DNA from: Escherichia coli
GTDB lineage: Bacteria; Pseudomonadota; Gammaproteobacteria; Enterobacterales; Enterobacteriaceae
Direction: 5' to 3' (one strand)
Assembly: GCF_030384885.1 (NCBI RefSeq)
Contig: NZ_CP128613.1
Length of the DNA: 64,000 nucleotides
The translations under genes were made by a program, and so were the position numbers. Positions 4,364-57,290 of this stretch are shown one piece after another. The first letter of the stretch is position 1. The number at the start of each line of letters is the position of its first letter. The notes under the pieces are model-generated. The model did not search any database. It was not told the origin of the DNA and saw only the letters and a list, made by a program, of their open reading frames with translations.

Positions 4364-4600
4364 ATGATTTGTCCACGTTGTGCCGATGAACAGATTGAAG
4401 TGATGGCGAAATCGCCGGTGAAAAATGTCTGGACGGTCTACCAGTGCCAGCATTGCCTTTATACATGGCGCGATACTGAACCGCTACGTCGCACCAGCCG
4501 CGAACATTATCCCGAAGCCTTCCGTATGACGCAGAAAGATATTGATGACGCACCGATGGTGCCGAGCATTCCGCCGCTGCTGGCGGAAGGTAAGCGCTAA
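4364..4600 (+). CDS. ecdD: Small decarboxylase subunit D (BsdD/YclD-like), 78 aa, Cys-rich
   Basis: Small ORF with CPRC ... CQHC motifs immediately after the UbiD gene, as in bsdBCD-type operons. Confidence 0.65.
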   Translation: MICPRCADEQIEVMAKSPVKNVWTVYQCQHCLYTWRDTEPLRRTSREHYPEAFRMTQKDIDDAPMVPSIPPLLAEGKR

Positions 4601-52810: not shown

Positions 52811-52996
52811 ATGCTGATTCTGACTCGTCGAGTTGGTGAGACCCTCATGATTGGGGATGAGGTCACCGTGACAGTTTTAGGGGTAAAGGGCAACCAGGTA
52901 CGTATTGGCGTAAATGCCCCGAAGGAAGTTTCTGTTCACCGTGAAGAGATCTACCAGCGTATCCAGGCTGAAAAATCCCAGCAGTCCAGTTACTAA
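52811..52996 (+). CDS. csrA: Carbon storage regulator CsrA, 61 aa
   Basis: [48 protein letters not shown]. Confidence 0.97.
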
Positions 52997-53002
52997 TCTT
53001 TC

Positions 53003-53028
53003 CGCGTCTCATCTTTATCGGTGAGACG
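53003..53028 (+). terminator. Stem-loop after csrA (putative terminator)
   Basis: gcgtctca-tctttatcgg-tgagacgc; weak U-tract. Confidence 0.5.
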
Positions 53029-53310
53029 CACCCTCAAAATTCCTCCTTCACTCCATTGTTTTTTCGCTTTACTCCCGTTCATTCAACTTTAGTCTCCATT
53101 TTTTGCATTACTGCTATCTGTCAGACCTCCGTTTTTCTGTTGATAAAACACTCTTTTTGACGTTTTTACAGACTAATTGAGCGTGAAGTGTGCAAGCGAT
53201 AAAAGTGTGGGAAAAATTGTTTGACTTATAAGTCTCAGAAAGTAATATGTGCGCCACGCAGCGACGATGAGCGATAAACAAGTTCTTCGAAGCACTCGTA
53301 AGAGGCGTGT

Positions 53311-53403
53311 GGTGAGGTGGCCGAGAGGCTGAAGGCGCTCCCCTGCTAAGGGAGTATGCGGTCAAAAGCTGCATCCGGGGTTCGAATCCCCGCCTCACCG
53401 CCA
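53311..53403 (+). tRNA. serV: tRNA-Ser (anticodon GCU)
   Basis: Cloverleaf with long variable arm, anticodon loop cuGCUaa, 3' CCA; read directly. Confidence 0.9.
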
Positions 53404-53406
53404 TTT

Positions 53407-53483
53407 GCATCCGTAGCTCAGCTGGATAGAGTACTCGGCTACGAACCGAGCGGTCGGAGGTTCGAATCCTCCCGGATGCACCA
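53407..53483 (+). tRNA. argV: tRNA-Arg (anticodon ACG), copy 1
   Basis: GCATCCG acceptor stem, anticodon loop ctACGaa, CCA end. Confidence 0.9.
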
Positions 53484-53682
53484 TATTCTCCGAAATCTTC
53501 AGCGATGAAGGTGTCGAAGAGGTGGCGGTACTAACCGCAAGCACCAGGGAGGATAACGTTGCTTTAGCAACGGGCCGAAGGGCGAGCCGTAAGGCGAGTA
53601 ATCCTCCCGGATGCACCATCTCTTACTTGATACGGCTTTAGTAGCGGTATCAAAAAATCTGCAGTAAAGTAAGTTTCCCGAT

Positions 53683-53759
53683 GCATCCGTAGCTCAGCTG
53701 GATAGAGTACTCGGCTACGAACCGAGCGGTCGGAGGTTCGAATCCTCCCGGATGCACCA
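53683..53759 (+). tRNA. argY: tRNA-Arg (ACG), copy 2
   Basis: Identical 77-nt sequence to copy 1. Confidence 0.9.
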
Positions 53760-53955
53760 TATTCTACGAAATCTTCAGCGATGAAGGTGTCGAAGAGGTG
53801 GCGGTACTAACCGCAAGCACTAGGGAGGATAACGTTGCTTTAGCAACGGCCAGAAGGGCGAGCCGCAAGGCGAGTAATCCTCCCGGATGCACCATCTCTT
53901 ACTTGATATGGCTTTAGTAGCGATATCAATATCAGCAGTAAAATAAATTTCCCGA

Positions 53956-54032
53956 TGCATCCGTAGCTCAGCTGGATAGAGTACTCGGCTACGAACCGAG
54001 CGGTCGGAGGTTCGAATCCTCCCGGATGCACC
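53956..54032 (+). tRNA. argZ: tRNA-Arg (ACG), copy 3
   Basis: Identical 77-nt sequence to copy 1. Confidence 0.9.
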
Positions 54033-54231
54033 ATATTCTACGAAATCTTCAGCAATGAAGATATCGAAGAGGTAGCGGAATTAACCGCAAGCACCAGGAA
54101 GGATAACGTTGCTTTAGCAACGGCCCGAAGGGCGAGCCGCAAGGCGAGTAATCCTCCCGGATGCACCATCTCTTATTTGATATGGCTTTAGTAGCGGTAT
54201 CAATATCAGCAATAAAGTAAGTTCTCCCGAT

Positions 54232-54308
54232 GCATCCGTAGCTCAGCTGGATAGAGTACTCGGCTACGAACCGAGCGGTCGGAGGTTCGAATCCTCCCGG
54301 ATGCACCA
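54232..54308 (+). tRNA. argQ: tRNA-Arg (ACG), copy 4
   Basis: Identical 77-nt sequence to copy 1. Confidence 0.9.
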
Positions 54309-54588
54309 TATTCTCCGTAATCTTCAGCGATGATGGCATGGAAGAGGCGATGGTAATCACCGTCTGCTCCAGGGAGGATAACGTTGCGGCAGCAACGGCC
54401 CGAAGGGCGAACGCCAGTGAGTCATCCTCCCGGATGCACCATCTTCTCCAAAAAATCCCCTTCAAAAATATTTCATTTCTAAATAACTATTTTATCCATT
54501 TCCTGAATATTCTTCTCCTTCGCCATCAGCGACAAAATCAAGCAATTACGCTAAAGTAGCGTCATATTTTTCGACTTGCGAGAAGACC

Positions 54589-55155
54589 ATGTACGAGCGT
54601 TATGCAGGTTTAATTTTTGATATGGATGGCACAATCCTGGATACGGAGCCTACGCACCGTAAAGCGTGGCGCGAAGTATTAGGGCACTACGGTCTTCAAT
54701 ACGATGTTCAGGCGATGATTGCGCTTAATGGCTCGCCCACGTGGCGCATTGCTCAGGCGATTATTGAGCTTAATCAGGCCGATCTCGATCCCCATGCATT
54801 AGCCCGCGAGAAAACCGATGCCGTAAGAAGCATGTTGCTCGATAGCGTCGAACCACTCCCCCTTGTTGAAGTGGTGAAAAGCTGGCACGGACGTCGACCA
54901 ATGGCTGTAGGAACGGGGAGTGAAAGCGCCATCGCTGAGGCACTGCTAACGCACCTGGGATTACGCCGTTATTTTGACGCCGTCGTTGCTGCCGATCACG
55001 TCAAACATCATAAACCTGCGCCAGACACATTTTTGTTGTGCGCGCAGCGTATGGGCGTGCAACCAACGCAGTGTGTGGTCTTTGAAGATGCCGATTTCGG
55101 TATTCAGGCGGCCCGTGCTGCAGGCATGGACGCTGTGGATGTTCGCTTGCTGTGA
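54589..55155 (+). CDS. yqaB: HAD-family sugar phosphatase YqaB, 188 aa
   Basis: HAD motif I (IFDMDGTILDTE); position after the tRNA cluster. Confidence 0.85.
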   Translation: MYERYAGLIFDMDGTILDTEPTHRKAWREVLGHYGLQYDVQAMIALNGSPTWRIAQAIIELNQADLDPHALAREKTDAVRSMLLDSVEPLPLVEVVKSWHGRRPMAVGTGSESAIAEALLTHLGLRRYFDAVVAADHVKHHKPAPDTFLLCAQRMGVQPTQCVVFEDADFGIQAARAAGMDAVDVRLL

Positions 55156-57217: not shown

Positions 57218-57290
57218 AAAAAGGCCACTCGTGAGTGGCCAAAATTTCATCTCTGAATTCAGGGATGATGATAACAAATGCGCGTCTTTC
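57218..57290 (-). ncRNA. micA: MicA (SraD) small regulatory RNA
   Basis: Minus-strand sequence gaaagacgcgcatttgttatcatcatccctgaattcagagatgaaattttggccactcacgagtggccttttt matches MicA as I recall it; 3' hairpin plus U-tract. Confidence 0.85.

Follow-up and report, generated by a model that had tools for sequence, protein, structure and literature searches.

A tRNA-Arg array with a structured element behind each gene

The 64,000-nt stretch of Escherichia coli DNA analysed here (from contig NZ_CP128613.1; hereafter the window) carries the gene order alaS, csrA, serV, four tRNA-Arg(ACG) genes, yqaB, yqaA and gshA, and each of the four arginine genes is followed by a structured element closing with a duplicate of the tRNA's own 3' end. 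ARAGORN and the Rfam tRNA model place serV, which encodes tRNA-Ser(GCU), at 53311-53403 (56.8 bits with the Rfam model) and the arginine genes (argV, argY, argZ and argQ by their K-12 names) at 53407-53483, 53683-53759, 53957-54033 and 54232-54308, all on the + strand. The four arginine genes are mutually identical and spaced with a period of 274-276 bp, and Tandem Repeats Finder resolves the array into 3.8 copies of a 274-bp period with 92% matches, in agreement with a first-pass annotation of the window that had described four identical genes recurring about every 275 bp. Over the array region the window is 100% identical to E. coli 2013C-4282 (NZ_CP027579.1) and 95-96% identical to most other complete E. 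coli genomes.

The elements are 133-135 nt long, lie on the same strand as the tRNAs and begin at the base after the CCA of tRNA-Arg (element 1, 53484-53618; element 2, 53760-53894; element 3, 54034-54168; element 4, 54309-54441). The last 18-19 nt of each are identical to tRNA positions 58/59-76: the 18-mer ATCCTCCCGGATGCACCA occurs eight times on the + strand, at the four tRNA ends and in the four copies ending at 53618, 53894, 54168 and 54441, against none expected (100 shuffles). The core CGTTGC-NNNN-GCAACGGNCNGAAGGGCGA is likewise found four times, once per unit, with zero expected. The direct repeat extends one base past the CCA, to a T, and the 3' domain of the element comprises 76 nt (GCACCAGGGAGG...GGATGCACCA). 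In element 1, the recognisable parts are a 5' arm (GGGAGGAT, 53547-53554), a hairpin (CGTTGC-TTTA-GCAACG, 53557-53572) and the 19-nt tRNA 3'-end copy (53600-53618).

The first-pass annotation had captured this organisation in outline, and several of its details are revised here. The palindrome that it saw in each spacer is present, albeit with other boundaries, as a 6-bp stem with a 4-nt loop; the upstream arm, given as one sequence throughout, has two versions, GGAAGGAT in unit 3 and GGGAGGAT in the other three units; and the 19-nt copy attributed to every spacer holds for units 1-3 (AATCC...), whereas unit 4 has 18 nt (CATCC...). The last unit had rightly been called diverged (alignment A1), yet it ends at 54441 rather than 54450. 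Element 4 differs from the others in its loop (GGCA), in its third hairpin (GAACGCCAGTGAG) and in the copy starting with CATCC, and this trailer type of element also occurs in K-12, E. albertii, O157, S7 and ETEC4068.

Each element folds into a module whose closing helix is formed by GGGAGGAU and AUCCUCCC and encloses three small hairpins, with two 5' hairpins (CUUCA-GCGA-UGAAG and GCGGU...ACCGC) lying outside it. Within the closing helix, the partner of the 5' arm is the part of the copy that spans T-loop positions 59-60, the T stem's 3' strand and the first bases of the acceptor; in the Arg type the helix is lengthened by GCACC, which pairs with GG-UGC of the copied acceptor strand. Compared with shuffled sequences, the fold energies correspond to z values of -4.67, -5.44 and -5.87 for elements 1-3 and of -1.80 for element 4. 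When two tRNAs are folded together with their spacer the identical tRNAs pair with each other, a repeat artefact, and only the element's own module is informative. The pairing between arm and tRNA-end copy, proposed initially from inspection, is supported by the folding of all four elements and by covariation across tRNA types (see below).

Sequence and strain comparison delimit a leader between each of the first three elements and the following tRNA-Arg gene. The leader of copy 2 measures 64 nt (53619-53682, +; TCTCTTACTTGATA...CCCGAT) and is all that remains of the spacer in strains with an empty slot, those of copies 3 and 4 measure 62 nt (53895-53956, +) and 63 nt (54169-54231, +). By eye these 62-64-nt leaders are structured as well, with CTTACTT/AAGTAAG around an inner hairpin TTGATAC...GTATCAA.

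The sole sigma-70-like site in the interval 52990-54620, TTGACT-16 nt-TAATAT at 53221-53248 (+), precedes the serV-arg operon, and its position fits the measurements of Mohanty and colleagues, who put the serV leader at 52-56 nt (PMC7049720). Neither a T run nor a terminator-like site on the + strand was found inside the array (53407-54441). With a single promoter-like site and no internal + strand terminator, the elements belong to the precursor RNA and are co-transcribed with the tRNAs. Further downstream, a weak terminator-like hairpin (54548-54562, +; ACGCTAAAGTAGCGT then CATATTTTTC) lies 27 nt upstream of the yqaB start codon and is the sole candidate end of the tRNA operon transcript.

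The spacer elements are homologous to RtT RNA

In a permissive Rfam search, RtT (RF00391) aligned full-length to all four elements, with 26.7-29.4, 34.2, 27.7 and 28.3 bits for elements 1 to 4, respectively, and in element 2 the match covers model positions 1-130 of 130 (E 2.6e-5 in a 206-nt search). In the reciprocal direction, a covariance model built from 19 Arg-type elements only (R1), which scores the four window elements (themselves training sequences) at 149.3, 145.1, 154.6 and 126.9 bits, retrieved the rttR repeats of K-12 with scores of 27.6-33.1 bits (E from 3e-5 to 6e-4), short elements behind tRNA-Lys genes at 57-61 bits and long Lys as well as Pro elements at approximately 24-50 bits. 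The block common to element and RtT reads AACGTTGC-loop-GCAACGGCCCGAAGGGCGAG...GAGTAATCC, and in the printed Rfam alignments AACGUUGC-loop-GCAACGGCCCGAAGGGCGAG...CGAGUAAUCC; past this block the Rfam consensus closes with the 3' end of tRNA-Tyr and the window elements with that of tRNA-Arg. We conclude that the spacer elements are homologous to RtT.

RtT has been an orphan RNA since 1991, when Bosl and Kersten reportedly described the 178-bp repeats and the rtT RNA (rttR) of the tyrT operon (cited in PMC4986893), and annotation still carries the phrase 'processed from tyrT transcript'. In K-12, one element lies between tyrT and tyrV and three 178-bp repeats lie 3' of tyrV; every one ends in AATCCTTCCCCCACCACCA, and the annotated rttR, which includes the tpr frame, starts 7 nt after tyrV and ends precisely with the copied CCA. 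Like these repeats, the Arg form follows a same-strand tRNA gene directly, occurs in tandem, pairs a 5' arm with the copied T-stem strand and terminates in a 19-nt copy of the neighbouring tRNA 3' end. Both contain the core AACGTTGC-loop-GCAACG-R-CCCGAAGGGCGA...GAGTAATCC, and the Arg form conforms to the general hairpin pattern CGNNGC-loop-GCNNCG followed by CCCGAAGGGCGA and GAGTAATCC. The Arg form is, however, shorter (133-135 nt versus 178 nt for the rttR repeat) and is without the approximately 40-nt segment GAGAAC-hairpin-GGTTCGA-CTCGAGCG...GCGAGAG that rttR carries between the 5' arm and the AACGTTGC hairpin, and RtT model positions ~22-60, the internal segment, have no counterpart in it. 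It also has two 5' hairpins of its own, unlike rttR, and alternates with full tRNA genes, whereas the rttR repeats trail one. The literature on a discrete stable RNA released from the tRNA precursor concerns the Tyr type only, and neither an RNA product nor a phenotype was found in it for the Arg form.

None of the four elements reaches the RtT gathering score of 45 bits, and at 27-34 bits the Arg form therefore goes unannotated, while the Tyr, Pro and Lys types pass the Rfam threshold with 51-137 bits. The Arg elements are thus a short RtT variant that current annotation misses; we do not call them certified members, since they score below the Rfam threshold, lack part of the consensus and have an RNA product that is deduced by analogy.

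The element's 3' end follows the neighbouring tRNA

A scan for the core pattern, with one genome per species, is a sample of taxa rather than a census, and the pattern is too loose for G+C-rich genomes, so that approximately 100 chance matches stand among the matches listed. It uncovered at least 22 loci with an RtT-like core, in Enterobacterales and at two loci in Orbaceae (Gilliamella and Zophobihabitans). Among the matches listed, the core lies 3' of a same-strand tRNA gene at 19 of the 19 loci that include the upstream flank, the tRNAs concerned being Tyr(GUA), Arg(ACG), Lys(UUU), Pro(UGG) and Pro(CGG). Within the same set, most elements carry an exact 18-19-nt copy of positions 58/59-76 of their own tRNA, most of the remaining copies are one or two bases off, and a few are decayed or truncated by the contig end. 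Individual tRNA variants recur in the copy: an acceptor-stem A-to-G change in an Enterobacter tRNA-Tyr (L035) and a different T stem in the Zophobihabitans tRNA-Lys (L100) are each mirrored in the adjoining element.

In E. coli, the Lys and Pro versions carry the NCBI pipeline label 'RtT sRNA', after proK and both inside and after the lysT-valT-lysW-valZ-lysYZQ operon. These features belong to the same family, and their 3' end matches the neighbouring tRNA as in the Arg form; the short Lys form moreover has the junction GGAT-AACG in common with it. Unlike the Arg form, they pass the Rfam threshold, and in the Pro form and the long Lys form an intrinsic terminator separates the tRNA from the core. 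The accompanying note 'processed from tyrT transcript' is a carry-over from the Tyr case. In published work RtT is already treated as a family of several tRNA operons (PMC4986893, PMC4147364): in Actinobacillus, Rfam RtT matches lie beside Asn and Lys tRNA genes, and most candidate small RNAs of that study were positive on Northern blots (PMC4986893), and RNA-seq in Klebsiella revealed RtT RNAs at two loci (PMC4147364). The elements of the Arg operon extend an orphan family and are not a new kind of system.

The short Lys elements (survey contigs L125, 637-805 and 1132-1298, and L067, 14461-14629) reach the RtT threshold only by way of the preceding tRNA-Lys body. That the 5' half of the RtT model settles on a tRNA body suggests that the internal segment of the long form (hairpin plus GGTTCGA) stems from a tRNA T arm, and this segment also bears cognate T-stem sequence.

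Variant Arg-type spacers were seen in Klebsiella. In two contigs the first tRNA-Arg spacer (L137, 1086-1235; L138, 958-1107) is 150 nt long and holds a degenerate core, AGCGCTG-TGAAA-GCAGCGGCCCGCAGTGCGAGG..., whose stem covaries with CGTTGC/GCAACG (29.8-38.3 bits with R1); the 3' part of this spacer (GAGTCACTCTACCGATTAGGCCA) has no match to tRNA-Arg or serV. The K. pneumoniae contig L137 further contains a full Arg-type element (1451-1678) directly followed by a partial second one (1756 onward) that has the two 5' hairpins and no core, which is tandem growth without an intervening tRNA.

We aligned 19 distinct Arg-type elements from six genera under an RNAalifold structure. In this alignment 95.2% of the cells are paired, as opposed to 28-47% when the partners are slid by one to three columns. 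Compensatory changes occur at ten pairs, all of them in the two 5' hairpins and the third core hairpin, as exemplified by GCC/GGC in E. coli versus GGC/GCC in Klebsiella, Enterobacter and Pantoea, and in the hairpins with invariant stems the loops vary freely (GAA, UUA, AAA, GUA, GCA).

Across tRNA types, the closing helix changes with the tRNA. The second T-stem pair is G-C in Arg, A-U in Tyr and C-G in most Lys elements, and the arm reaches acceptor bases that are specific to the tRNA (in Lys, for instance, CGUG pairs with CACG), although four Lys elements retain the Tyr/Arg-like arm GAAGG with one mismatch. For 27 distinct arm/copy pairs, 86.7% of closing-helix cells are paired versus 38-58% in slid controls, a value inflated by the fact that the arm was located partly by complementarity. 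The position of the arm is nonetheless fixed by the conserved flanks GGAU-GAGAAC or GGAU-AACG, and the search was constrained so as not to take up the internal T-arm-like segment of some long forms; one locus (L093) was corrected by hand and another (L083) omitted as too degenerate.

Elements come and go among E. coli strains

In ten additional E. coli genomes whose csrA-yqaB interval was read, both the occupancy of the spacers and the number of tRNA-Arg genes vary, slot occupancy differing in 10 strains. The window, like 2013C-4282, has an element in all three spacers and in the trailer. In K-12 spacer 2 is empty, with elements in spacers 1 and 3 and the trailer; O111 has elements in spacers 1 and 3, with spacer 2 and the trailer empty; and E-1246 has an element in spacer 1, a partial one in spacer 3 and nothing in spacer 2 or the trailer. 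Two O157:H7 strains have empty spacers 1 and 2, a partial spacer 3 of 102 nt and an element in the trailer, and in S7 all three spacers are empty and the trailer is occupied. Three strains have three tRNA-Arg genes: RIVM_C037884 (element in spacer 1, empty spacer 2 and trailer), ETEC4068 (empty spacer 1, elements in spacer 2 and trailer) and YZMc17-1 (empty spacer 1, partial spacer 2 and a partial trailer of 210 nt). Two more genomes gave no information, namely Stbl4, with only a single tRNA-Arg gene before a gal-operon junction, and IH5, which is rearranged with a breakpoint at the 5' end of the last tRNA-Arg gene. This breakpoint lies approximately 230 nt upstream of yqaB; the gene begins ...CTCATCCGTAG rather than GCATCCGTAG, and REP-like sequence and yjdM now precede it.

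In every empty slot the GCACCA of the tRNA is directly followed by TCTCTTACTTGA (TCTTCTCC in the trailer), corresponding to the loss of one repeat copy plus the element, exact to the base. Other alleles are less regular. In the YZMc17-1 trailer an inner GCACCA is joined by deletion to the GCACCA of the copy, and this strain has no intact core at the locus. In O157 the trailer holds a chimeric element, part unit-3 and part unit-4 type. Several unrelated E. coli (L128, L129, L133 and L134) have the same partial 102-nt spacer, in third or second position, in which the 5' hairpin CATCAGTGATGATG is kept and the core and 3'-end copy are gone; this is an imprecise deletion allele that has either spread or recurred. 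The 19-20-bp direct repeat and the 275-bp unit cause precise loss, chimeras or conversion, and changes in tRNA number. Since slots are empty in many strains and YZMc17-1 is without an intact core, the elements are dispensable at this locus.

An RtT-type module or a by-product of the array?

We consider it probable that the elements are RtT-type RNA modules excised by the machinery that forms tRNA 3' ends. The module would be cut from the polycistronic precursor by the tRNA-maturing nucleases: an endonuclease would cleave a few bases past the upstream CCA, and 3' exonucleases would halt at the copied CCA beside the closing helix, yielding an RNA of approximately 130 nt, comparable to the 171-nt rtT RNA. 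We infer this release of the Arg-spacer RNA as a discrete molecule from the analogy with rtT RNA. The conservation of the core across genera, the compensatory changes and the type-specific arms together argue for an RNA fold under selection and favour an RtT-type module over debris. Because the elements fold and are conserved in other enterobacteria, the observation made in the first-pass annotation stands.

Several findings weigh against this interpretation. The Rfam threshold is missed not only in the window but by every Arg-type element from six genera, Escherichia, Salmonella, Klebsiella, Enterobacter and Pantoea among them, and literature searches retrieved no paper on the Arg spacers. 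Arg-type elements hardly vary in the closing helix and in the first two core hairpins; for these parts, covariation is supported solely by the comparison between tRNA types, with the inflated figure given above. Some tRNA-end copies have decayed by one or two bases (in Pantoea, Salmonella houtenae and K. aerogenes), which implies that identity to the tRNA may reflect recent duplication or gene conversion rather than selection. Finally, the free loss of elements in E. coli, down to the missing core of YZMc17-1, means that any role at this locus is redundant or weak, and it counts against a required cis-acting signal.

Much of the strain variation would also follow if the elements were DNA-level debris, that is, leftovers of partial tRNA duplication and unequal recombination that have no RNA role and are regenerated by tandem arrays. 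The empty slots are precise, YZMc17-1 does without an intact core, chimeric and partly deleted elements occur (102-nt and 210-nt spacers), some 3'-end copies have decayed, and long-form RtT contains further cognate T-arm-like pieces. Yet debris would hardly keep a near-invariant core and flanking hairpins that pair through compensatory changes from Escherichia to Pantoea when the adjacent 62-nt leader is, apart from the last bases before the tRNA, unconserved between E. coli and Klebsiella. Four further kinds of tRNA gene, in two orders, are moreover followed by the same core, and the arm is complementary past the T stem into tRNA-specific acceptor bases and is not a copy of the sequence upstream of the tRNA. 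We therefore regard debris as unlikely, and the recombination scars that had been proposed initially are retained in part: they hold at the DNA level, where the empty slots of other E. coli strains lack exactly one repeat copy plus the element, but elements conserved with compensatory changes from Escherichia to Pantoea are not mere scars. A requirement for the elements in processing the operon, whether as RNase E or RNase P entry or cleavage sites or as a terminator/antiterminator switch for read-through, is improbable. Although the highly structured element lies exactly between tRNA genes, and the GCACC/GG-UGC pairing of the Arg type gives a 13-14-bp helix followed by ACCA that resembles an acceptor/T-arm minihelix, in many strains the same tRNA genes are separated by plain 62-64-nt spacers, and one strain has no intact element at all; their tRNAs must mature without it. 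An intrinsic terminator or attenuator, another of the initial suggestions, was rejected on the grounds that no hairpin plus T run and no terminator-like site exists on the + strand between 53407 and 54441, and the Lys and Pro elements follow an intrinsic terminator and do not form one.

The identity block from T loop to CCA also invites comparison with mobile DNA, as a repeat of this extent is the usual form of the tRNA-borne att sites that flank genomic islands. The elements could then be relics of an integrative element inserting in the tRNA T loop, with the 18-19-bp repeat as attL/attR core and the tandem copies arising by accretion, like that of the cis-mobilizable elements which integrative conjugative elements leave behind. 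The tandem units with identical terminal repeats and the association of one core with different tRNA ends fit this idea, and as in attL/attR pairs one copy of an 18-20-bp T loop-to-CCA repeat is in the tRNA and the other downstream. Still, a 135-bp unit with only about 115 bp between the repeats and no integrase, occupying the same chromosomal loci across genera and covarying in its stems like an RNA, is poorly compatible with such an origin, which we hold to be improbable as well. Nor was the element found in mobile-element collections: in a BLAST search with element 1 of 50,697 phage records, only a misfiled Salmonella contig matched and true phages were without it; the plasmid matches were mostly misfiled chromosomes, a few matches in small records being uninspected; and three of three core matches in viral contigs were host flanks (of a Mu-like phage, of a putative insertion sequence (IS), and the tyrT locus). 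In one IMG/VR contig (L140, ~4550-4600), unrelated sequence, guessed to be an IS by its look only, abuts an E. coli tyrT RtT repeat in mid-unit before GCGAGAGAGCGTTGCC.

GTG-started frames of 39 codons run over elements 1 and 2 (53522-53641 and 53798-53917), and K-12 annotates tpr, a protamine-like frame of the tyrT repeats, inside rttR. We find it extremely improbable that the elements encode such a small protein: the frame is missing in element 3 and different in element 4, 1-2-nt indels separate homologues (alignment A2, columns 109-111), the Arg and Tyr cores would use different frames, and the variation tracks base pairing rather than codons. The coding interpretation was accordingly rejected, the frame being confined to units 1 and 2 and broken by indels in homologues.

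Implications of an arginine branch of RtT

Reading the spacer elements as RtT-type modules extends the family to an arginine tRNA operon through a short form overlooked by current annotation, and it discloses a family rule: the 3' end follows the neighbouring tRNA and the 5' arm usually changes to keep the pairing. Such a rule is more suggestive of a tie to the cognate tRNA than of a generic small RNA. The only function proposed in the literature is that rtT RNA modulates the stringent response (cited in PMC4986893). As natural E. coli strains carry from four to zero copies, effects on tRNA-Arg processing and starvation responses are testable without engineering.

A more specific and rather speculative idea, which we rate as doubtful, is that RtT-like modules are tRNA-specific '3'-half mimics' on a common core, for Tyr, Arg, Lys, Pro and perhaps Asn. 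Such a mimic would display the T-stem strand, the acceptor strand and the CCA of one tRNA and would act with or against a reader of the cognate tRNA end, for which a 3'-end nuclease, the CCA-adding enzyme, a tRNA-end toxin or the uncharged-tRNA signal to RelA are candidates; the last of these would account for the effect of rtT RNA on the stringent response that was reported long ago. The common core itself may be a small element that repeatedly entered T-loop position 58/59 of tRNA gene copies.

A distant parallel is the 3' external transcribed spacer of glyW-cysT-leuZ, said to have been described by Lalaouna and colleagues in 2015 as a small-RNA sponge. It and the Arg element are both pieces of a tRNA precursor, and the leuZ spacer survives processing, as the Arg element presumably would. 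There is no sequence relationship between them, however, and the leuZ spacer acts via Hfq and by pairing with RyhB and RybB.

The repeats make the locus prone to deletion, to chimeras, to changes in tRNA-Arg number and to mirror-image false tRNA calls, and this instability and the false calls matter for assembly, annotation and strain engineering. On the + strand, ARAGORN and the Rfam tRNA model called only the five real tRNAs, and the elements were not called as tRNA. On the minus strand, ARAGORN reported 'tRNA-Arg(TCG)' at 53703-53774 and 53977-54048; these calls cover, in antisense, tRNA-Arg copies 2 and 3 together with 15 nt of the element behind each, arise only where the element begins with TATTCTACG (units 2 and 3) and not with TATTCTCCG, and look like mirror-image false positives. 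At gathering score, Rfam has just one other match in the window, the small RNA MicA (57219-57290, minus strand; 83.9 bits).

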